Shown here in pieces: positions 50,514-62,916 of a stretch of DNA of 64,000 nt; within the stretch, counting starts at the first letter, position 1, and each line of letters begins with the position of its first letter. A program made the translations under genes and the position numbers. A model generated the notes under the pieces. The model had not been told where the DNA came from and ran no database searches. It worked only from the letters and a program-made list of their open reading frames with translations. This DNA comes from an uncultured Chloroflexia bacterium (GTDB taxonomy: Bacteria > Chloroflexota > Anaerolineae > Anaerolineales > Villigracilaceae), in the NCBI GenBank assembly GCA_963785535.1, contig CAWAVQ010000007.1, forward strand, positions 183,502-247,501, in the 5' to 3' direction.

Positions 50514-51614
50514 ATGTCAACACCCACCCAACACGGTTATCTGGTCATTGCAGACATCTCCGGCTACACATCCTTCGTTGCCAAAACGGAACTCGAACAT
50601 TCACAGGAGATCCTTTCTGAACTGCTTGAGTTAATGGTAAGCCGCTTCCAGCCCACGATGACCATCTCCAAACTCGAGGGCGATGCCGTGTTTGCATACG
50701 CGCCCGAAGAAGTGTTTGTGTGCAGCGGAACATTGATCGATTTTATCGAATCCATGTATGTGGCCTTTCGCGACAAACAGCTTTCCATAAAGCGCGCGAC
50801 AACCTGCACCTGCAATGCCTGCCGCAACATCCCTTCCCTTGACCTGAAATTCTTCATCCATTGCGGCGACTACATTCAACAGAACGTGGCCAACATCAAG
50901 GAGCTGGTCGGCTCGGATGTGAACCTGGTTCATCGCCTCACCAAGAACCATGTCACAGAGGCGACCGGCTGGCGGGCGTATATGATGTACACAGAACAAT
51001 GCCTGGACCACAATGGTTTGAATCTTGCCGATGCCCAGGTCCAGATGGAGGCGTATGAAAGCCTCGGCGAGATCAAAACCTTCAATATTGATTTACACAA
51101 GCGCTACCAGGAACTTTGCGAAGCACGCTGCATTGTGCTTGAAGAGCAAGAGGCAGACCTTGTTCTCCAAATTGACTTTTCCACGCCTCCTTCTGTGACC
51201 TGGGAATGGATCCACAACCCGGACAAGCGTAATCTTTGGAACAACGACAGTCACTTGAAGTGGTCCTCAGGCGACCGACCGCAAGGGCGACCGGGCATTG
51301 GTTCAAGCAATCACTGCGCACACGGCAAATCCATGAGCACTGAAGTAATCGTAGACTGGCATCCGTTTGAATATTACACCGCACATTCCTTCGATAACGG
51401 CAAGCACACTGCCACAGAAACGATACGCTTTGAAACTTTGCCGAATGGCGGCACACGCGTCCGTGACGCACTCAAGATGCACATGCCAATTCCGCGTTTC
51501 ATCCGCAGCCCCATGGTGAAATATGTGCTGATCTCCCACTACCACCATGACAAAAGCATGGCACTGGCTGCACAATTAGCCAACGAAGAATTCACCAAAG
51601 CCAAAGGCGAATGA
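50514..51614 (+). CDS. DUF2652 (nucleotide-cyclase-like fold) fused to an SRPBCC domain
   Basis: YLVIADISGYTSF...ISKLEGDAVFAY resembles the class III cyclase metal/substrate strands, as in DUF2652. The C-terminal 150 aa look SRPBCC-like. Confidence 0.6.
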   Translation: MSTPTQHGYLVIADISGYTSFVAKTELEHSQEILSELLELMVSRFQPTMTISKLEGDAVFAYAPEEVFVCSGTLIDFIESMYVAFRDKQLSIKRATTCTCNACRNIPSLDLKFFIHCGDYIQQNVANIKELVGSDVNLVHRLTKNHVTEATGWRAYMMYTEQCLDHNGLNLADAQVQMEAYESLGEIKTFNIDLHKRYQELCEARCIVLEEQEADLVLQIDFSTPPSVTWEWIHNPDKRNLWNNDSHLKWSSGDRPQGRPGIGSSNHCAHGKSMSTEVIVDWHPFEYYTAHSFDNGKHTATETIRFETLPNGGTRVRDALKMHMPIPRFIRSPMVKYVLISHYHHDKSMALAAQLANEEFTKAKGE

Positions 51615-52456: not shown

Positions 52457-54055
52457 ATGGATTTCACAATCAACGACGATTATCTTGATGAAGCTTTAGC
52501 GAAGGTTGAGAGCGTGCGGAATTGGAGTCCCCGAGTGATTTCCAAGTTGGAAAATTCCATCCACACCGCGAATGATGAAGAACTCTTTCGCGTCAGCCCA
52601 CTGGAGTGGGCATCCCAAAAAAGTATGGACGAATATGAAGCAGTGGACTTATTCTTGCATGCAGCGAAAGCCGGATTATTCTATATGGAATGGGATGTCA
52701 TATGCCCGTGCTGTGGCAGGATTAGCCAGAGTCTGCGGGATCTGCATAGTCTTGAGTCGCACAGCACCTGCAAGTTATGCTTCCGTAAAGATATGCCGAA
52801 CCTGGACAACTCAGTCCAAGTTACTTTTACGCTCTCGCCCTCTGTTCGGTCGCTGCGGTTTCATCATCCCGAAACTCTGACGCTGGAAGAGTATTGTTTC
52901 GAGTATCTATTTGAACCCAGCACCATTATCAACGGGATGATGCCGCTCATGGATGCTGTTCATTACGTCCAAAGACATCTTTCAATGTTCTCACCCGGCG
53001 AGAAAATAACTGTCGAAACAGAAGTCGGCGTAGGAGCACTCACTTGTTATGACTTATTCGGCCAACAGAGTTTTGGTCTGGTCGCGAGCGGCACACCCAA
53101 ACTGGAGACGCAAAAAATAGCGATCAAATTGACTGACGGCGGCTTTGTGGTACCCTTGCCTGAAATGCAACCGGGTGAATTTAGCGTTGGCCCTTTCGCT
53201 TACGCGGGAACTTTTTATCTTATCCGTCCGGGTAAGGTCGTTATCGAATTCGAACAGAACGCCAGTGCCAAGGCAGCGCTCCTGGTAGCTTTTTTCCCCA
53301 TACCGCTGGAGGGTATCCAGACTATGGAAATACCCGCCGCCGGACTCTCTGCTGATGTGGTTAACCTGATCGAGATAATGAAAGATGCCAGCGTTACCAT
53401 GCAAACGTTGCCCGACCATACGTTTACCTCGCCGCGCCTGACTGCCAAGCGGTTGTTTGCCAGTCAAACCTTTCATGATTTGTTTCGCGCTGAGGTCTTT
53501 CAAGATGCGGAAGGTTTTGGCATAAAGGACGTGACGATTTTGTTCACCGACCTGAAAAGCTCCACCCAACTCTATCAACAGATCGGAGATTTGAATGCGT
53601 ATGCGCTGGTGCGGGAACATTACGGCGTTTTGAATACGGCCATTTTAAATCAACACGGGGCTATTGTCAAAACCATCGGCGATGCGATTATGGCGAACTT
53701 TAATCATCCTGTGGAAGCGGTCGGCGCAGCGCTTGAGATGCTAGGAGGACTTCGAGAATTAAATCAATCTTCACACCATGGAGGCTTGAGCCTAAAACTT
53801 GGTATTCACAGAGGGGCAGCTATTGCGGTGACACTCAACAATCGCATTGATTATTTCGGCCAAACGGTGAATATCGCTTCGCGGATACAAGGCAGTGCCG
53901 GAGGAGATGAGATTTATCTGACCGAAGAAATATACACTTCGCCAGGGGTGCTGGACTTGCTCCAACAACATAATTGCAAAATTGAATCCATTCTGATTCA
54001 ACTCAAAGGCATTGAGGGACAGGTAAAAATTTACAAGGTGACTGGCTCGAACTAA
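52457..54055 (+). CDS. Class III adenylate/guanylate cyclase with large N-terminal Cys4-containing sensor domain
   Basis: C-terminal ILFTDLKSSTQLY, KTIGDAIMANF, GIHRGAAI and YFGQTVNIASRIQ. N-terminal ICPCCGR...CKLCF. Confidence 0.85.
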   Translation: MDFTINDDYLDEALAKVESVRNWSPRVISKLENSIHTANDEELFRVSPLEWASQKSMDEYEAVDLFLHAAKAGLFYMEWDVICPCCGRISQSLRDLHSLESHSTCKLCFRKDMPNLDNSVQVTFTLSPSVRSLRFHHPETLTLEEYCFEYLFEPSTIINGMMPLMDAVHYVQRHLSMFSPGEKITVETEVGVGALTCYDLFGQQSFGLVASGTPKLETQKIAIKLTDGGFVVPLPEMQPGEFSVGPFAYAGTFYLIRPGKVVIEFEQNASAKAALLVAFFPIPLEGIQTMEIPAAGLSADVVNLIEIMKDASVTMQTLPDHTFTSPRLTAKRLFASQTFHDLFRAEVFQDAEGFGIKDVTILFTDLKSSTQLYQQIGDLNAYALVREHYGVLNTAILNQHGAIVKTIGDAIMANFNHPVEAVGAALEMLGGLRELNQSSHHGGLSLKLGIHRGAAIAVTLNNRIDYFGQTVNIASRIQGSAGGDEIYLTEEIYTSPGVLDLLQQHNCKIESILIQLKGIEGQVKIYKVTGSN

Positions 54056-54513: not shown

Positions 54514-55992
54514 ATGAAAGCATTGTTAATCTACCCTGAATTCCCGGATACCTTTTGGAGTTTCAAACACGCCCTGAAATTCATCCGCAAACAGGCCTCC
54601 CTGCCCCCGTTAGGGTTATTGACCGTGGCAGCCATGCTGCCCTCAAATTGGGAAAAGCGCCTGGTCGATTTGAACGTCAGGAAACTGACCGAGCAGGACC
54701 TGGCCTGGGCCGATATGGCTTTGGTCAGCGCCATGGTCGTCCAGCGCAGTTCGGCGCAGCAGATCATCGCGCGCTGTAAAGCTGCGGGACTCAAAGTCGT
54801 GGCGGGTGGGCCGCTCTTCACCGCCGAATACGATCAGTTCGAGGAGGTCGATCATTTCATCCTGAACGAAGCGGAGTTGACTCTGCAGCCGTTCCTGAAT
54901 GACTTGCAGGCTGGTTGCGCCAAACGCATCTACACATCTGATGAATTCCCTGAAATCGAGGAAACCCCGGCCCCGTTGTGGGAGCTTCTCGATATGAAAC
55001 ACTACGCCACCATGGCGATCCAGTATTCGCGCGGTTGTCCCTTCGATTGCGAGTTCTGCAACATCACGGCGCTCTTCGGTCACAGACCACGCGTCAAGAC
55101 CGCCGAGCAGATTATTCGTGAGTTGGATGCGCTTTATCAGCTTGGCTGGCGCTCGGGCATCTTTTTCGTCGATGACAATTTTATCGGCAACAAACGTCAC
55201 ATCAAAGAGAGCTTACTGCCTGCCTTGATCGAATGGCGCAAAAACAAAATCGGGGTTTCCTTCCACACCGAGGTGTCCATCAACCTGGCCGACGATGAAG
55301 AACTGATGAACCTGATGTCCCAGGCAGGCTTCAACATGGTCTTTATCGGGGTCGAGACGCCCGATGACGAAAGCCTGGCAGAATGCAACAAGAAGCAAAA
55401 CCGCCGCCGCGATATGATCGAGGATATCAAACGCATCCAACGCAGCGGCATGCAAGTCCAGGGCGGGTTCATCATCGGCTTCGACAGCGATACCCCCTCG
55501 ATTTTCCAGAAACAGATCGATTTCATCCAGAAGAGCGGTATTGTGACCGCCATGGTCGGTCTGTTGCAAGCGCCGATCGGCACCCGGCTGTATGAAAGAT
55601 TAAAGGGTGAGGGTCGTTTGTTGAGTGCCTTCTCAGGTGACAACGTGGACGGCAGCACCAACATCATCCCGAAAATGAATCTGGATGTGCTCCAAAAGGG
55701 CTACAAAACGGTTGTCAATTACCTGTATGCACCCAAGAATTACTACGCACGGGTTAGGACCTTTTTGAAGGAATACAAAGCACCCAAAATCAGGGTTGAG
55801 TTCGATTTCGAATATGTCCTGGCCTTCTTCCGCTCGGTTATTCAACTGGGCATCATCGACAAAGAACGCTGTCACTACTGGAAGCTTTTCTTCTGGACGC
55901 TCTTCCGCCGCCCCAAGTTGTTCCCGTTAGCGATCACCTTCGCCATCTACGGCTACCACTTCCGCCAGGTCTGCGATTTGCATATTGTCTGA
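54514..55992 (+). CDS. B12-binding-domain radical SAM protein (DUF4070-type C-terminus)
   Basis: N-terminal MKALLIYPEFPDTFWSF...PPLGLLTVAAMLP (B12-binding-like). CPFDCEFC CxxxCxxC cluster motif. RBS ggagga. Confidence 0.85.
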   Translation: MKALLIYPEFPDTFWSFKHALKFIRKQASLPPLGLLTVAAMLPSNWEKRLVDLNVRKLTEQDLAWADMALVSAMVVQRSSAQQIIARCKAAGLKVVAGGPLFTAEYDQFEEVDHFILNEAELTLQPFLNDLQAGCAKRIYTSDEFPEIEETPAPLWELLDMKHYATMAIQYSRGCPFDCEFCNITALFGHRPRVKTAEQIIRELDALYQLGWRSGIFFVDDNFIGNKRHIKESLLPALIEWRKNKIGVSFHTEVSINLADDEELMNLMSQAGFNMVFIGVETPDDESLAECNKKQNRRRDMIEDIKRIQRSGMQVQGGFIIGFDSDTPSIFQKQIDFIQKSGIVTAMVGLLQAPIGTRLYERLKGEGRLLSAFSGDNVDGSTNIIPKMNLDVLQKGYKTVVNYLYAPKNYYARVRTFLKEYKAPKIRVEFDFEYVLAFFRSVIQLGIIDKERCHYWKLFFWTLFRRPKLFPLAITFAIYGYHFRQVCDLHIV

Positions 55993-56136: not shown

Positions 56137-59100
56137 CTAGCCATTCTCGCCTGCCAGACGGGCAATTTGGAGCGTGCAATAGCGAATCACATCCTGCTTC
56201 TCCGCTGGCAGGGCACTCTCCTCGATTTGGGCAATGCGCTCGACATCGTTCATCGCGCGGATGATGCTGACCGGCACTTCAATATCTCCTTCCGTAAACG
56301 AACTTAGATATTCAATCGCGCCAATCAGGAAATGACGCATTTCGTCATCCGCGCGCGCGGTGCGGAAAAATCCGGATAAGACTGGGGAAAGTTTTGCGCC
56401 ACGGCCAATGGCAGATGGGATTTCAAACGATCGCGAGGCTGAGAAAGCATACAATGCGGTTGCAAGTTCCGTGAAACTCTGCACCCGTTGATAGATAGAT
56501 TCGCCCAACACGTCCCAAATGATCGAACGCCAGTGCTCAATTTGTATGGGCAGTTGAAGCAATTTTTCGACCTCAATGCGCCATTTATCCGAAACCCGCC
56601 CAGAGATAGGCAGCATAAATTCATCGATATCCCTGTTGAATAGATTTCTTTGCAGCAACACCGCCAAGTCAGGGCGCAATGTTGGCAGGATGTCAGGGAT
56701 AAGAACCCCATCTACAAAGAAATCGTTGATATCGACACCGTGTCGTCGCAGGAGTTCCTGCTGGAAGAAAGGTAAATAGTGTCCCAACGCATCGCTATCT
56801 TCGCGCAACGCCACAAAGATCGAATTGCCCGCCGGGAAGGCAGTTTCGATTTGTTTTAGATATTCGCCGTTCCAATCTTGATAGATGCGTAAGGTATTTA
56901 GAATTTCGTAAACGGGTAAATCGGGTAACAGACGCTCTGCAACCATGCGTCCGCGTTCAGCCTCGGCGAAATTCTTCTGCGAGAAACGCTCCAGGGCACG
57001 GAACAGCCCGGTAGTGAGTTGGTTGATGCCCAGCACTACCGTTTGCGCCTGATTATGAGAAATCGCCCGCAACAAACTGCCGTGTCTGGCAAATGGGATG
57101 ATCTCGGCAATATTGGCTAATATTTGTTGACCGCGCTCGACGCCTGAACCAGGCGTACGCCTGGAGGAAGGCCGGTCACGCAATTGCGGCATGGAGCGCC
57201 CGATGAAATAGGAAATGATGTGAATGCCAACCACATCCTCTTCGCGACCATACAGGATATGGCGGAAATTATCCGTCAACTCTGCCAGGAAATTCTCCAT
57301 CAGAGCTTCGTTTTTCCCGACTGTCAGATGCTCCAATTCCTGTAAGCTTCTGCTTTGCGCGCCCAGGCGACTTTCTGCGATCGTTTCGGCAGCGCGGATC
57401 AAATCTTCGCGATGGCTGCGCTGCGATTCACGCACATGGTTTTGCACACCGACAAAATCACGCGCCCGCAAAAAACGAAGCTGTTCCGAAATATTGCTCT
57501 GGAAGGTGCGCAAATCGCCGCCCAGAAAGACACCTTGTAATGGCGTGACGGCATAGACAGTGCTTTTGCGGGCTGCTGCGGGAAGGTTTGTGGAAAAGCG
57601 GCGTTTATCGTCTTCGGTCTTTCCGAAAGCGGGCTGACCTGCCACGTGTGAATAATAGCCTCCCTGGCGTTGCATCGGCTCTCCACTGCCTAACTTGATA
57701 CGAACCGCATCCACGACACCGTGCTCAGCCAGCCAGGAGTGTGTGTCGTACTTCGCTTTCCGGTAAAGATGAGCGGCGTTCGCCTGGCTGACCTGCTGGC
57801 TCAAATCCGAACCGGCAATGAAAACCTCGGCGATGATCTCCTTGAAGCGCTCCTGGGGTGATTGCAAGGTGTGACGACTCTGGGTGGCATAGTCCCAGAC
57901 CCGGTCGAGGTAAGAACGGACATTGCTGACGGTATCAATATCTTCAAACAGGGGAATCAACCACACCGGGGGAAGCTCGGGGTGTGCAAAGTCCCTGCGC
58001 ATCTGTTCGGCCTGGATACGCATCTTCCGGTCGAGAGCGATCAGCGCTTCTGGCTTCGAAGATAAACTGATCTGTAAGCCCAGGGCCATACCAGGATTGC
58101 CATACTTCCCGGCAATGGTGTTGATCTCCTGTATATTGTACGCGGTCGTATCGATGGCAAACGGATCGCGTGCCGTGATCAAGCCCTGGTTGATACGCGG
58201 CGTGAGCACGATGCGTTGCAAGATGTCTCGATATCCGAGCACTTCCTGGAGCAGTGGTTCGGAGCCAAGGTTATTCAAAATGGCAGGGATCAGCGCGTAC
58301 AATTGTTTGCGCAGCGCTTTGTTCAGCGAAAAGTAAAATTCCAACGTAGCGCGTCGCTGCCCACGGAGTTCGAGCATTTTCCGCTCGTAACGATCGTTAT
58401 GCTGCCAAAGTACACGCGCCGGATCACGGCGAAGATGAAGCTGCGTAGCCAGACGCTGCAAAGAAGTCGTCTCGACAGAAAACGGCAGGATGCCCCGGTA
58501 GCGCCCTTCCAACTGGTGCGTCAAGGTTGTGATTTCATTCAAGAGGCTGGTAAAACGCTGGTTATGTTGCGGCAGCATGTCGAGTTCGGATTTCAGTTCC
58601 GGTTTTACCGAGATCGTCGGAGCTACACCCTGCAAAATGCGCAAGATGCGGTTCATACGCCGCACATTTTCCATCACAACAGCCGCCACCAGGCGTTGCC
58701 CCTGTCCTGACGGACGGCTGCTGCCATCCCAATCGCTCCAAAACGACAAAAAGGGATTCAACGCAGTATTTGAAAATAGTCCCGCAAACTCTTCACCAGC
58801 GATCAGGGAATCGAGGTCTAACAATATTTCATCGGCCTCTTGCTGTGAGTTGATGGCTACATTCAGCCCGATATATTCCTTGAGCAACTCTTGCGACACT
58901 TTTTCGATCAGTTCGGGCGTAATCGGTTTCTGGGCGATCAAGGCCTCTACAACCGCATCAAGTGCCATCTCGGCACTCAGCGAATAGGCCTGGGTTGGAT
59001 GCACGGTGCGGTCATAGAGACGCAATCTGAAATGCTCCTGTCGTCGCTGGAGCGAATCCTTCATGAACTCTCGTTCCAACCGTTCGGCAAGCCAGCGTCC

Positions 59101-61770
59101 ATTTTCATTCAACGCTCGCCACATCAATTCGTCATGGATGGCCTGGCGATCGAGCAAACGGTTCCGAAATACATCCAGACGCTCAGGGATATGTATTTGG
59201 ATGAATTCCCGATTTAATCGCTTGCCGTTTAACGGTTGCATGGCGGATAAACGTTGACGCGCCCGGCTATTCTCACAATTCTGGATGAGTTGCTTCCCGA
59301 AGGCTTCCCAGGCCTGCAAGAGTTCGGTTGAACGGTTACGGCTTCTTTCTGGAACGTTGAAAGATACCTGCTTCCGGTTATATCGCGCATCTTCCTCGGC
59401 GATCAAGCGGTTCAGGTCAATGAGCAGGCGGCGGGTTTTTACCAACAACACATCCGCATGATCCATGCCACCCAACGTAAGACGGAAGATTTTTCTTCCC
59501 GTTTCGAAGCCCTTTTCTGTGCGTGCAAAAGTCGCTAAGGGCAACATGCCGATCCCCGCGCGCGCCAGCGATGAAGCCAGCCAATCCAGTGACAGACCCG
59601 CCGGCAGGTGCTCAACGCGTAAGAGTGGATATAGACTTCCCGTTGGCGGAATGATTTCCAGGCCAAAAGGATTGCGATCCGAGGGCAAATTCTTGACCGC
59701 CTGCAAAAGGGCCTGCGTTCTCTCATATAAAATCGAGTTACGCAGATGCCAGTAAGTCCTGGTATTCTGTGTTCCGTTCCGGTAGAACAGATAGCTGAGA
59801 AAAATTGCGGCAATGTTGGGCTGTATATGGGAATTCAAGGCCTCAAAGCGTTGAAATATTTGACGATCACGAATTTCAAGAACAGTTAATCTGGCCCCGG
59901 CAAAACTATCAGTCTTGGACATGGAATGCACCGTGATCACCCGGTCGGCTTGTGCTTCAGTGATGACCCCGTGACGATTCAATTCTGATGCAATCTGTCG
60001 GACGGTTTTGATTTCGGGAAAATCGCGAACCGGAACCACGTTTTGATAAGAAAGATCATCAATCACATAAAGATTGTTTTGCAGGCAATACTTGACTAAG
60101 CGCCGAACATCCGCTTCATCGAACACCCGTCCTGTCGCGTTATGCGGATTATTGATCGCTACCGCGCTGCGTCCTGGCCAGGAGGAATCATGCTGGCATA
60201 TTTGCTCTATTTTCTCGATGATAGCATCCACATCCAACCCCAACGATGTAGATAACGGCACGGCATATGTTTTCTTAAAACACTGTTCGTAAGACCAACT
60301 CAAATCGGGAATGACAACTTCAGATACCCCACAATGAAAACCTAATATGCTCAATGCGGTGCGGGATGAACCGCTCACTACAGTGCAAGCTTCGGGTCGG
60401 TACTGTGGCTGTTGTTTCGTAAAAACGCTCAGGAAACTGCGCTGGAGTGCCTGGAGCCATTCGGGATCGTGTACATTCTGAATAAGCCCTTCGAGAACCT
60501 CATCCGCCTCCAATTCGGCAAACTCGTCAAATATATATCTCTTCCATGCATGCCTGACCCGCTGAGTGATGACAGCGCTTTTTTCCTCCCAAATCGTCAG
60601 GGAATGATCCAAGACTCGGGCACGCTCTTCCACCAATCGTTCAAGATGGCGCTCTATACGCTCGGCCAATTCTGGCAGGACAGTTTCCGCGGAAACTCCC
60701 AAGTCCAGACCTTCGAAGGATGGTTTCGCCTGCGGAACCTGCGTAGACAGATCGCTCGGAAGTTCAGCGAGTTTTTGCGTGAGCAGAAAATCCAGAAACT
60801 CGGCCTCCGAGGCAGAGGGCGTTCCTTTGAGATTGAAGTGCACGTTCTCAATAACACTCAGGAAATCGGCATTGCCAACGATGAACACGATGGAAAGATT
60901 ATGCAGTCGTTTTGCAAAAATGGCTGGCGTCAACAAACGGATCACGCGCTGCACAAGTTTGGCTTCACGCGCCAAAGAAAGGTGATTGGGCGCATTATTG
61001 GCCTCGATGAAGAACAACGGATGCTCGATGCTCATCAGGCGCAACCTGCGTCGAGTCACTTCGTCCAGCAAACCCCCGATCAGCAAAAAGGTCGGCATAT
61101 TGGGCTGAAGATTCAAGTATCGTTCAATCTGCTGGCACGCAACGCCTTCATCGGAAGCCAATTCATCGAAAAGCAAGTTGGGGATGGCTTTCAACTGGGG
61201 TTGGAGTTCGCATTGATAACTCAGGATACGGGCAGGGGTGAACTCCAGATAAGATGACAGAGCAAACAAGAGTATTCGCAGCATTTCATGAACGCCGCCT
61301 GAGCCCAGGATAATTTCGCGCTTACCAGATTGTTCCCCGGTGTCATAGTGTAGTGGTTCCTGTTGATGCTCCAACCAGGCTCGAAACGCATCGATCAGTG
61401 CGTGCGGTTTCTTACGGGAATAGCCTCCCCGTGGCATATAAGGTGCGCTCTTTTGAATCGCCCGAATTAAAAAATCAAGCTTTGGCTTTTCTGTAGCCTC
61501 CCATCCAAGATACTCCAAAATCATTTCAGGGGCTGTATCGCTTAGCTCCTCCTGGTGAATATCGATACCGAGCACCATCCGCAAATAGGCCGATGAAAGA
61601 CTTCCATCTTGCACCGGGTTGCCGATGTGAAAGTTGACACGCTCCTCGTCCGGGATCGCCGCCGCAGCCGTGCTTTCGCTGATCTCTGATACACGCGCCA
61701 CACGGATCGGCTTCAGGCGAAAACTGGCCTGAGGATCAGGGGGATAAATAGTCATCGAATTCACGCTCAC
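56137..61770 (-). CDS. Giant 1877-aa fusion: two class I/II aminotransferase-fold domains + PEP-carboxylase-like domain with substituted catalytic motifs
   Basis: Aminotransferase domain 2: NNPHNATG (aa 540), IDDLSY, SMSKTDSFAGAR (aa 616). Domain 1 (aa ~40-330) is degenerate. C-terminal 1000 aa carry colinear PEPC-like motifs TVHPTQ (922), LIPLFEDID (1271), VFIAGSDLSQQ (1316), KLGSGEPMQRQGG (1359) and a C-terminal ...AGENG. Confidence 0.7.
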   Translation of the reverse strand: MSVNSMTIYPPDPQASFRLKPIRVARVSEISESTAAAAIPDEERVNFHIGNPVQDGSLSSAYLRMVLGIDIHQEELSDTAPEMILEYLGWEATEKPKLDFLIRAIQKSAPYMPRGGYSRKKPHALIDAFRAWLEHQQEPLHYDTGEQSGKREIILGSGGVHEMLRILLFALSSYLEFTPARILSYQCELQPQLKAIPNLLFDELASDEGVACQQIERYLNLQPNMPTFLLIGGLLDEVTRRRLRLMSIEHPLFFIEANNAPNHLSLAREAKLVQRVIRLLTPAIFAKRLHNLSIVFIVGNADFLSVIENVHFNLKGTPSASEAEFLDFLLTQKLAELPSDLSTQVPQAKPSFEGLDLGVSAETVLPELAERIERHLERLVEERARVLDHSLTIWEEKSAVITQRVRHAWKRYIFDEFAELEADEVLEGLIQNVHDPEWLQALQRSFLSVFTKQQPQYRPEACTVVSGSSRTALSILGFHCGVSEVVIPDLSWSYEQCFKKTYAVPLSTSLGLDVDAIIEKIEQICQHDSSWPGRSAVAINNPHNATGRVFDEADVRRLVKYCLQNNLYVIDDLSYQNVVPVRDFPEIKTVRQIASELNRHGVITEAQADRVITVHSMSKTDSFAGARLTVLEIRDRQIFQRFEALNSHIQPNIAAIFLSYLFYRNGTQNTRTYWHLRNSILYERTQALLQAVKNLPSDRNPFGLEIIPPTGSLYPLLRVEHLPAGLSLDWLASSLARAGIGMLPLATFARTEKGFETGRKIFRLTLGGMDHADVLLVKTRRLLIDLNRLIAEEDARYNRKQVSFNVPERSRNRSTELLQAWEAFGKQLIQNCENSRARQRLSAMQPLNGKRLNREFIQIHIPERLDVFRNRLLDRQAIHDELMWRALNENGRWLAERLEREFMKDSLQRRQEHFRLRLYDRTVHPTQAYSLSAEMALDAVVEALIAQKPITPELIEKVSQELLKEYIGLNVAINSQQEADEILLDLDSLIAGEEFAGLFSNTALNPFLSFWSDWDGSSRPSGQGQRLVAAVVMENVRRMNRILRILQGVAPTISVKPELKSELDMLPQHNQRFTSLLNEITTLTHQLEGRYRGILPFSVETTSLQRLATQLHLRRDPARVLWQHNDRYERKMLELRGQRRATLEFYFSLNKALRKQLYALIPAILNNLGSEPLLQEVLGYRDILQRIVLTPRINQGLITARDPFAIDTTAYNIQEINTIAGKYGNPGMALGLQISLSSKPEALIALDRKMRIQAEQMRRDFAHPELPPVWLIPLFEDIDTVSNVRSYLDRVWDYATQSRHTLQSPQERFKEIIAEVFIAGSDLSQQVSQANAAHLYRKAKYDTHSWLAEHGVVDAVRIKLGSGEPMQRQGGYYSHVAGQPAFGKTEDDKRRFSTNLPAAARKSTVYAVTPLQGVFLGGDLRTFQSNISEQLRFLRARDFVGVQNHVRESQRSHREDLIRAAETIAESRLGAQSRSLQELEHLTVGKNEALMENFLAELTDNFRHILYGREEDVVGIHIISYFIGRSMPQLRDRPSSRRTPGSGVERGQQILANIAEIIPFARHGSLLRAISHNQAQTVVLGINQLTTGLFRALERFSQKNFAEAERGRMVAERLLPDLPVYEILNTLRIYQDWNGEYLKQIETAFPAGNSIFVALREDSDALGHYLPFFQQELLRRHGVDINDFFVDGVLIPDILPTLRPDLAVLLQRNLFNRDIDEFMLPISGRVSDKWRIEVEKLLQLPIQIEHWRSIIWDVLGESIYQRVQSFTELATALYAFSASRSFEIPSAIGRGAKLSPVLSGFFRTARADDEMRHFLIGAIEYLSSFTEGDIEVPVSIIRAMNDVERIAQIEESALPAEKQDVIRYCTLQIARLAGENG

Positions 61771-62886: not shown

Positions 62887-62916
62887 AAAACGCCCCGATC
62901 ATCTCGGGGCGTTGGG
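62887..62916 (-). terminator. Rho-independent terminator
   Basis: 10-bp stem aacgccccga/tcggggcgtt (62891-62900/62906-62915). On the minus strand it is followed by ttttt. Confidence 0.8.

Follow-up and report, generated by a model that had tools for sequence, protein, structure and literature searches.

A conserved two-gene module of Anaerolineae couples a probable SPFH-type protein to a giant fusion of aminotransferase and phosphoenolpyruvate carboxylase-like domains

What does one very large polypeptide do that seems to join the enzyme making oxaloacetate to an enzyme that could consume it? The question arises from a 64,000-nucleotide stretch of DNA from an uncultured Chloroflexia bacterium (hereafter the window), whose reverse strand carries a 1877-aa open reading frame (ORF) directly behind a smaller gene. 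A first-pass annotation, made from the letters alone, had read this giant ORF as two aminotransferase-like domains followed by a domain resembling phosphoenolpyruvate (PEP) carboxylase (PEPC) with rewritten catalytic motifs. We are highly confident in a three-domain architecture of this kind and in the homology of its parts. The gene is genuine and strongly constrained, and its product may, together with its partner, provide a membrane-tethered path from PEP to an amino acid that has not been described before.

The ORF and the motifs that had been picked out in it are all present where the first-pass annotation placed them. They comprise NNPHNATG (aa 540-547), DDLSY (aa 571-575), SMSK (aa 616-619, nucleotides 59914-59925) and GAR (aa 625-627) and, in the C-terminal half, TVHPTQ (aa 922), PLFE (aa 1273), VFIAGSDLSQQVS (aa 1316), KLGSGEPMQRQG (aa 1359) and a C-terminal ENG. 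Because these motifs are invariant or nearly so across 37 full-length homologues, with identity down to 33%, they cannot be put down to chance. A database entry 100% identical to the protein is 1872 aa long and almost all homologues measure 1871-1873 aa, so translation most likely begins with the ATG at 61755 (residue M6), which gives a protein of 1872 aa.

Judged by its sequence and modelled fold, the middle domain belongs to the class I aminotransferases and has a complete pyridoxal phosphate (PLP) site, which bears out the earlier reading of residues ~455-760 as a genuine class I/II enzyme. A scan with the Pfam model PF00155, one of the checks that had been proposed, gave a match over residues 431-773 (E=1.2e-19; it scores 71.2 bits where the cut-off is 19.7, and covers positions 36-353 of the 361 in the profile); many NCBIfam models of class I aminotransferases also matched, all of them far sub-threshold and below every equivalog cut-off. 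In an AlphaFold2 (AF2) model of residues 6-810, with a mean predicted local distance difference test score (pLDDT) of 89 and a predicted template modelling score (pTM) of 0.88, pLDDT exceeds 90 across the aminotransferase domain. Foldseek relates the model to aspartate aminotransferase (AspAT), aminocyclopropane carboxylate (ACC) synthase and LysN at E~1e-14, with target-normalised template modelling (TM) scores of 0.65-0.70 and 14-19% identity to the solved structures. At the level of single residues, INNPHNATG, VIDDLSY and HSMSKTDSFAGARL pair with the corresponding motifs of solved aminotransferases, the lysine of the SxSK motif included, and N544, D572, Y575, S618, K619, R627 and R763 are invariant among the 37 homologues. 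R763, which lies in FRLTLGG, corresponds to the arginine that binds the alpha-carboxylate; we take the roles of N544, D572, Y575, K619, R627 and R763 in binding PLP and substrate to be those established for AspAT.

The N-terminal ~330 residues are harder to place. The claim that residues ~40-330 are a second, degenerate aminotransferase copy finds moderate support only, as a copy of the large domain. Profile-to-profile comparison (hhalign) of this domain with the second one gives P=0.0026 in register, pairing REIILGSGG with CTVVSGSS, FLLIGG...LFFIE with AINNPHNATG...LYVID, and FIVG with SFAG; a BLASTP comparison of the two is not significant, and its best segment is in register. In the AF2 model, where pLDDT is mostly >90, the seven strands E148, E175, E194, E222, E247, E271 and E290, with helices interleaved, come in the same order as those of the second domain (E457, E479, E495, E530, E563, E606 and E623), and the N-terminal domain lacks a counterpart of the small C-terminal domain. 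The N-terminal 337 aa have no relevant Pfam or NCBIfam match at relaxed thresholds (E<=10 and E<=1), 24 orthologues have no Pfam match there, and a sequence search of the PDB found none. At the position aligned with the PLP lysine the window protein has a lysine (K287) and most homologues have a proline, and the domain has invariant residues of its own (H48, Y111, Y142, E152, E256, S265 and R278). We have therefore filed it as a pseudo-aminotransferase and not as a family member, since the homology is one of fold only, with neither a hidden Markov model (HMM) match nor a conserved PLP lysine; the degenerate copy proposed earlier stands on profile alignment and strand order, and fails HMM and PDB sequence detection. 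Enzymes of fold type I function only as dimers, the subunits of which share their active sites, and the pTM of 0.88 for the two domains together implies a fixed mutual arrangement. On these grounds the N-terminal domain probably packs on the active domain as an in-chain 'second subunit', forming an intramolecular pseudo-dimer.

The remaining C-terminal ~1,060 residues are, on the evidence of their modelled structure, a homologue of PEPC that sequence models have missed. An AF2 model built with 39 homologues reached pLDDT 85 and pTM 0.87, and a Foldseek search with it against 350,542 PDB chains returned 18 matches with E<=1e-3, at E 2e-9 to 1e-7 (probability 1.0), every one of them a PEPC, with the next match at E=0.15. 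The PEPC structures found include those of maize (6V3O, 5VYJ), Flaveria (3ZGE) and Arabidopsis (8OJE, 5FDN, 8QTM and 8CJ5), and the archaeal-type 3ODM. This structural comparison had also been proposed at the outset, and with all 18 significant matches falling on PEPC it places the motif series recognised earlier on a PEPC fold. When a profile of the family was searched against the PDB, 3ODM (E=0.23) was the only non-aminotransferase among the 60 matches listed. We also aligned the family with a 12-sequence PEPC profile, for which genes annotated as ppc were taken from proteobacteria, one actinobacterium, one member of the Bacteroidota and one haloarchaeon. The hhalign result spans 709 collinear columns, from residues 816-1697 of the protein to residues 26-871 of the E. 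coli enzyme (P=0.003), and this one alignment runs through the canonical TAHPT, GGDRDGNP, ISMA, PLFE, GYSDS, GRGG, TEQ, SRP..RR, LRAI and LQxELL motifs; the pairs it gives, listed in Table 1, reproduce the correspondences proposed in the first-pass annotation. The helical extension that follows ends in GENG, to be compared with the ...RNTG of PEPC, and its R1871 and G1877 are invariant in the 37 homologues.

Several results weigh against this homology. No Pfam or NCBIfam model matched the C-terminal half, and PF00311 and PF14010, the two PEPC models suggested for the scan, were silent even at E<=10; what the scan did not find came from the structure search. The Foldseek TM-scores to PEPC are modest (0.37-0.55). 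As for the hhalign controls, the reversed profile scored far lower but one of eight block-shuffled profiles equalled the real score, and an alignment with the single E. coli Ppc sequence was weak and not decisive. Because the P value of 0.003 is not robust against the shuffled controls, the case for homology rests mainly on the structure match, with the motif order corroborating it. And because the HMM test and several motif tests failed, annotating the region as PEPC would be wrong, and 'PEPC-like domain', with a new subfamily to itself, is the better name.

We considered which parts of the PEPC active site have been kept, using E. coli numbering for the canonical enzyme and scoring invariance over 40 sequences. 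Invariant in all 40 are the counterparts of H138 (H924), E506 (E1276), D543 (D1322), R587 (R1368), R699 (R1533), R703 (R1537) and R713 (R1568); W248 (W1014), L504 (L1274) and E612 (E1429) are likewise kept and invariant. The hydrophobic pocket keeps two of its three residues, W248 and L504, the third (M538) having become F1317. More broadly, the alignment includes 73 PEPC-invariant positions, and the family is invariant at 41 of these, 27 times with the identical residue (odds ratio 9, Fisher P=3e-16), although an alignment is by its nature biased towards pairs of this kind. In PEPC the glutamate and aspartate hold the Mg2+ that binds PEP and stabilises the enolate, the conserved histidine deprotonates carboxyphosphate, and the hydrophobic pocket shields CO2 and the enolate (PMC10176493); the lid over the active site is formed by the SRP...LRAI segment (PMC8637149).

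The same mapping bears out the earlier observation that the Lys, His and Arg of the last two motifs are replaced. K546 is Q1325 in 40/40 sequences, and the Gly-rich loop, KLGSGEPMQRQG, departs from FHGRGGxxGRGG in having L1360 for H579 and S1362 for R581, so that its second arginine, R587, alone is kept (as R1368). R396 is W1122 in 30/40 sequences and K620 is hydrophobic, both of these assignments resting on uncertain alignment. The residues of the aspartate inhibitor site, K773, R832 and N881, have no counterpart in the mapping. From mutagenesis of the E. coli and Flaveria enzymes, we take R396 and R581 to contact the PEP phosphate, and K546 and K620 to affect bicarbonate binding. With five residues held important in canonical PEPC replaced, these exchanges count against the chemistry of the parent enzyme and make true carboxylation by the PEPC-like domain doubtful. 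Taken together, the intact enolate machinery, the altered anion binding and the frozen replacements speak for a functioning enzyme whose handling of substrate has changed and against a decaying pseudo-enzyme, and we think it likely, on the pattern of conserved residues, that the PEPC-like domain is catalytically active.

How might the parts work together? The best overall explanation, to which we give an even chance, is a membrane-tethered, two-gene module leading from PEP through an oxo acid to an amino acid. The first gene would supply a small membrane-anchored coiled-coil scaffold, probably of the SPFH type, and the second would unite a lysine-less pseudo-aminotransferase, a complete class I aminotransferase and a divergent PEPC homologue in one polypeptide. 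The PEPC-like domain would bind PEP at its metal site and cleave the enol phosphate to leave a metal-bound enolate. The enolate would become a 2-oxo acid, which would be oxaloacetate if bicarbonate is still used and pyruvate or another acid if it is not. The aminotransferase domain of the same particle would then transaminate the oxo acid, oxaloacetate giving aspartate, with the lysine-less N-terminal domain completing the pseudo-dimer and the SPFH-like partner anchoring or enclosing the enzyme at the membrane. The specific route from PEP to oxaloacetate to aspartate is a tentative reading that falls somewhat short of an even chance. Besides the doubt about carboxylation, it has to contend with the aminotransferase domain itself, the substrate of which, as far as its residues indicate, is an alpha-amino/alpha-oxo acid that the sequence does not further disclose.

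It may also be that the PEPC-like domain no longer carboxylates, and that the retained metal, histidine and enolate machinery serves some other PEP, oxo-acid or phospho-enol reaction, which would be a novel activity on the PEPC scaffold. For example, PEP might be hydrolysed to pyruvate, which is then transaminated to alanine, or the enolate might attack some electrophile in place of CO2. In favour of this, the positions of K546, H579, R581, R396 and K620 are replaced, mostly by invariant residues (Q1325, S1362); the rewritten Gly-rich loop has acquired new invariant residues of its own (K1359, E1364 and Q1367), the lid has grown by ~20 residues, and the family lacks the residues of the allosteric Asp site found in bacterial PEPC. 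Moreover, E. coli PEPC mutated at H138 or R587 is known still to hydrolyse PEP in a bicarbonate-dependent manner. What is hard to explain without CO2 chemistry is that the W248 and L504 pocket (with M538 changed to F) and the histidine that deprotonates carboxyphosphate have been kept. The gene neighbourhood, for its part, offers no alternative substrate and is not conserved past the SPFH-like gene. We regard such a loss of carboxylation as rather unlikely. In a fuller version of the same idea, the family would be a third class of the PEPC fold, hitherto overlooked, in Anaerolineae, its phosphate and bicarbonate residues exchanged for a new PEP or enolate reaction, wired to a transaminase through an intramolecular pseudo-dimer and anchored or enclosed by an SPFH cage of its own; such a metabolon of a membrane microdomain would be without a described counterpart. 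This too we regard as rather unlikely.

Pseudo-enzymes normally lose metal ligands and catalytic bases. The first-pass annotation had offered a pseudo-enzyme scaffold as one of two explanations of the substitutions, the other being new chemistry, and a scaffold reading would make the PEPC-like and N-terminal domains non-catalytic, acting as a ligand sensor or as an oligomerisation scaffold that regulates the aminotransferase or localises it at SPFH membrane microdomains. Several canonical catalytic residues have indeed been lost, as has the N-terminal PLP lysine, and the PEPC fold suits sensing and assembly, the canonical enzyme being a tetramer with rich allostery (PMC8100219). However, E1276, D1322, H924, R1368, R1533, R1537 and R1568 are invariant in sequences down to 33% identity, the positions invariant in the family cluster strongly at those of the active site that are invariant in PEPC, and the C-terminal half is conserved as highly as the aminotransferase domain. 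With the metal site, the catalytic histidine, the pocket and the lid arginines all kept, the scaffold becomes the less likely of the two explanations first offered, and we consider it improbable.

The gene is widespread. Homologues numbering 705 came from a word-indexed search, and the top 120 of them share 68% identity or more with the window protein, are 1,714-1,910 aa long (nearly all 1,86x-1,89x aa), come from Chloroflexota/Anaerolineales metagenome-assembled genomes (MAGs), and bear at most the label 'PLP-dependent aminotransferase'. Across these 120, per-window conservation from about residue 850 on is 0.62-0.88, matching that of the aminotransferase domain, and it is weakest at residues ~351-450 and ~801-850, the inter-domain linkers. 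An exhaustive phmmer search of 1.84 billion cluster representatives, with the last 1,087 residues as the query, returned 232 proteins; those listed have the ~1,800-1,950-aa architecture or are fragments of it, and among the best 150 of the 232 there was neither a canonical PEPC nor a protein of different architecture. Relatives are present in 345 species genomes (one genome scanned per species), and the counts of loci and the host labels given here refer to the best 80 of these. Almost all of the 80 are labelled Anaerolineae, Anaerolineales or Chloroflexota (one of them Thermoflexales), and three are labelled otherwise (Bacteroidota, Ignavibacteriales and Desulfobacterales); the host sequences include contigs of 0.7-4.4 Mb and a chromosome-level MAG.

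There is a negligible probability that the ORF arose as a chimera during assembly, or that a frameshift has joined what are really two genes, one for an aminotransferase and one for a PEPC, since the ~1,87x-aa architecture recurs in hundreds of independent assemblies, long contigs and the chromosome-level MAG among them, the GC content along the ORF has no compositional break, and the one locus in which the PEPC-like part occurs by itself (L049, described below) looks secondary. The mis-assembly that the first-pass annotation had named as its own possible undoing can thus be rejected.

Two candidates for a free-standing form of the PEPC-like domain were rejected. One is a 994-aa protein (P0154) whose gene sits at a contig end. 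The other is a 1,067-aa stand-alone ORF, 69% identical to the C-terminal half of the window protein, at L049:9986-13189 on a 627-kb contig of MAG MFD00032.bin.2.147. Its start falls exactly on the boundary between the aminotransferase and PEPC-like domains, and neither an aminotransferase part nor a partner gene was found within 10 kb of it. Because an IS630-type transposase and gene fragments (of FGGY, the C-terminal half only) flank it, we read this copy as probably a secondary truncation mediated by an insertion sequence, one that marks the domain boundary. Two further loci are unusual. In MAG MFD00032.bin.2.234 there are two distinct modules of partner and giant gene (L047 and L082), with C-terminal halves 67% and 61% identical to that of the window, which reflects either paralogy within a genome or contamination of the bin. 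At L064:10001-14848, the tblastn match to the C-terminal half spans ~4.8 kb in place of the usual ~3.3 kb, which suggests an insertion or a disrupted gene.

The small gene upstream was the other element of the locus that the first-pass annotation had singled out, as a flotillin-like SPFH gene at a distance of 46 nt. The position is correct: the partner gene ends 46 nt before the GTG of the giant ORF and 61 nt before the probable ATG. By tblastn it lies directly upstream of the giant gene in 71/80 loci; of the nine exceptions, eight are sequences that break off near the gene, and the ninth is the truncated L049. No other neighbour in the window is conserved across the 80 loci. The pairing extends to distant branches of 35-38% identity, where the partner is again upstream; the neighbour of P0155 is 37% identical to the partner in the window. 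The proposed inspection of neighbourhood and taxonomy yields, over the best 80 loci, a constant companion and a set of hosts labelled almost wholly as Anaerolineae and Chloroflexota.

Assigning the partner to a family is less direct. The window protein itself has no match at any Pfam threshold, PF01145 included, and a PDB search with it gave one chance match, while a profile search led to unannotated orthologues only. PF01145 does match 10 of 24 orthologues below threshold (best E=0.0038), and the neighbours of P0157 and P0152 have precomputed matches described as 'Band_7 (weak)'. By hhalign, comparisons with E. coli HflC and YqiK and with a QmcA profile are collinear over the whole length, with P of only 0.03-0.06, and those with the single E. 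coli sequences of QmcA, YqiK and HflC were not strong enough to decide the matter. The partner is thus a probable divergent SPFH/Band-7 protein, and the label given at first pass remains plausible on these sub-threshold matches. A hairpin resembling a terminator (Table 1) separates the pair from a ferredoxin-type gene upstream, and the gene downstream is convergent; this arrangement suggests that the partner and the giant gene form a transcription unit of their own. PADLOC defence models matched neither of the two genes.

Table 1. Features of the giant gene, its partner and their surroundings (window positions), with the motif pairs given by hhalign
Feature	Position	Strand	Basis or remark
Whole ORF	56137..61770	-	uninterrupted, 1877 codons from GTG
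Pseudo-aminotransferase domain (aa ~6-335)	60766..61755	-	hhalign, AF2 strand/helix order, own invariant residues
Linker and helices, poorly conserved, low confidence (aa ~336-415)	60526..60765	-	pLDDT 37-58; among the two least conserved stretches
Class I aminotransferase domain, catalytically equipped to judge by its residues (aa ~416-795)	59386..60525	-	PF00155, Foldseek, invariant residues
K619 codon, PLP Schiff-base lysine of SMSK	59914..59916	-	aligned with SK of 2GB3 and 1GD9; invariant in 37 sequences
Divergent full-length PEPC-like domain (aa ~816-1697)	56680..59325	-	AF2, Foldseek, hhalign
TVHPTQ (aa 922-927) = PEPC TAHPTE	58990..59007	-	H924 = E. coli H138
PLFE (aa 1273-1276)	57943..57954	-	E1276 = metal ligand E506; L1274 = pocket L504
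GSDLSQQ (aa 1320-1326) = PEPC YSDSxKD	57793..57813	-	D1322 = metal ligand D543; K546 replaced by invariant Q1325
KLGSGEPMQRQGG (aa 1359-1371), rewritten Gly-rich loop = FHGRGGxxGRGG	57658..57696	-	H579 replaced by L, R581 by S; R587 kept as R1368
LRDRPSSRR...LLRAI (aa 1530-1570) = active-site lid GSRPxxRR...LRAIPW	57061..57183	-	~20-residue insertion; R1533/R1537/R1568 = R699/R703/R713
C-terminal helical extension, mostly absent from canonical PEPC (aa 1698-1877)	56140..56679	-	AF2 helices, lower pLDDT; past the end of the hhalign alignment
Partner gene, 326 aa	61817..62797	-	N-terminal hydrophobic helix, globular domain, long Glu/Ala/Lys/Gln-rich helical region
Terminator-like hairpin	62889..62913	-	10-bp stem, 7 GC pairs, T run; between upstream Fer4 gene and partner; consensus scan only
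RTVHPTQ (family) = LTAHPTE (canonical PEPC)			hhalign pair
FWxDWDGSxRPSGQG (family) = SWxGGDRDGNP (canonical PEPC)			hhalign pair
LQISLS (family) = YVISMA (canonical PEPC)			hhalign pair
PLFE (family) = PLFE (canonical PEPC)			hhalign pair
FIAGSDLSQQVG (family) = MIGYSDSAKDAG (canonical PEPC)			hhalign pair
KLGSGEPMQRQGG (family) = FHGRGGSIGRGGA (canonical PEPC)			hhalign pair
LRDRPxxRR (family) = LGSRPAKRR (canonical PEPC)			hhalign pair
LLRAI (family) = LRAIPW (canonical PEPC)			hhalign pair
LFQQELLRR (family) = LQVELLxR (canonical PEPC)			hhalign pair

The genes beyond the pair are of other kinds. The convergent downstream gene (window 54514-55992, plus strand) encodes a B12-binding radical SAM protein with DUF4070 and is placed outside the module because it is present in only 3/80 related loci. 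Further along the plus strand lie two genes for uncharacterised signalling-type proteins, unrelated to the giant gene: DUF5939 fused to an adenylate/guanylate cyclase domain (window 52457-54055), and a protein combining DUF2652 with a polyketide-cyclase/START-like domain (window 50514-51614). On the contig of a distant relative, a canonical pair of NfeD and Band_7 (SPFH) genes (L097:16722-18811) stands 3-5 kb downstream of the giant gene, besides the dedicated upstream partner. One orthologue of the partner (P0307) carries the Joint Genome Institute name 'archaeosine-15-forming tRNA-guanine transglycosylase', which looks like an annotation error. Some relatives (L079, L087, L098 and L099) belong to MAGs labelled Bacteroidota or Ignavibacteriales, or have as neighbours SusC-like TonB receptors, sigma-54 activators or a protein with a Por-secretion tail. 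Among the genes that flank the pair in the most divergent branches (those of P0155, P0157 and P0152) there are likewise SusC-like TonB receptors and a Por secretion tail. The module thus appears also to occur in, or to have been transferred to, hosts outside the Chloroflexota. It is, in sum, a conserved two-gene module of Anaerolineae, with a few relatives on contigs that have Bacteroidota- or Ignavibacteria-like neighbour genes.

Both the architecture and the gene pairing are undescribed. The literature searched held nothing relevant on a fusion of PEPC with an aminotransferase or on PEPC in Anaerolineae, and the libraries searched, Pfam and NCBIfam, hold no model of the family, in agreement with the first-pass remark that no described family has this layout. 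Sediments, digesters and activated sludge all harbour Anaerolineae in abundance, and metabolic reconstructions of these bacteria miss the PEPC-like domain because current annotation says only 'aminotransferase'. If the domain carboxylates, the protein would provide a route from PEP to aspartate within one molecule, with natural channelling across a branch point of carbon and nitrogen metabolism; if it does not, the family would illustrate how the active site of PEPC can be turned to another use. Because the giant gene is so strictly paired with an SPFH-like one, its product is also a definite candidate client, open to testing, of an SPFH scaffold in bacteria, where few clients are known beyond proteases and NfeD.

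How does the module compare with known systems? A 2020 review of the PEP-pyruvate-oxaloacetate node distinguishes four types of PEPC (archaeal, bacterial, and the plant- and bacterial-type enzymes of plants), all of them stand-alone (PMC8100219), and known PEPCs are stand-alone homotetramers or hetero-octamers (PMC8100219); the present family would add a lineage that is fused and strongly rewired. With the bacterial and plant enzymes (PF00311; E. coli Ppc, maize C4 PEPC; 1JQN, 6V3O, 3ZGE) the PEPC-like domain has in common its fold (Foldseek E~2e-9, probability 1.0), a similar size (~880-1,060 aa), the order of its motifs, and identical residues at H138, E506, D543, W248, L504, R587, E612, R699, R703 and R713. 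In contrast to them, it is only ~12% identical in sequence and has no Pfam or NCBIfam match; it carries W for R396, Q for K546, L for H579, S for R581 and a hydrophobic residue for K620, together with the rewritten Gly-rich loop. Its lid is ~20 residues longer, the allosteric Asp-site residues are missing, an extra helical region of ~180 aa follows at the C terminus, and the whole is fused behind two aminotransferase-type domains. The archaeal-type PEPC (PF14010; Clostridium perfringens PepcA, 3ODM) is the best target-normalised structural match (TM 0.52-0.55) and, like the family, is without the allosteric inhibitor residues of the bacterial and plant enzymes (PMC8100219). However, the archaeal-type enzyme is a stand-alone protein of only 55-60 kDa, whereas the family domain is about twice as long and fused, with no significant sequence match between the two.

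The other two components can be set beside known families in the same way. The second domain agrees with class I aminotransferases of subgroup I-beta/gamma (the AspATs of Thermus, Thermotoga and Pyrococcus; the kynurenine aminotransferase BNA3; ACC synthase) in fold, in its match to PF00155 and in the residues that bind PLP and the alpha-carboxylate, but differs from them in following a lysine-less copy of the large domain in the same chain and in being followed by a PEPC-like domain. The partner appears to resemble SPFH/Band-7 proteins in layout, with a putative N-terminal membrane helix, a globular domain that opens with a motif of the type 'vlvLyEs.G.I..R.G..YPrHFsLP', and a probable long charged coiled coil. 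Like the proteins of the SPFH operon systems (HflK/C-FtsH, QmcA-YbbJ/NfeD and the flotillin YqiK), it is strictly linked in an operon-like arrangement to one client gene. In those systems the client is a protease or NfeD, whereas here it is a giant soluble metabolic enzyme.

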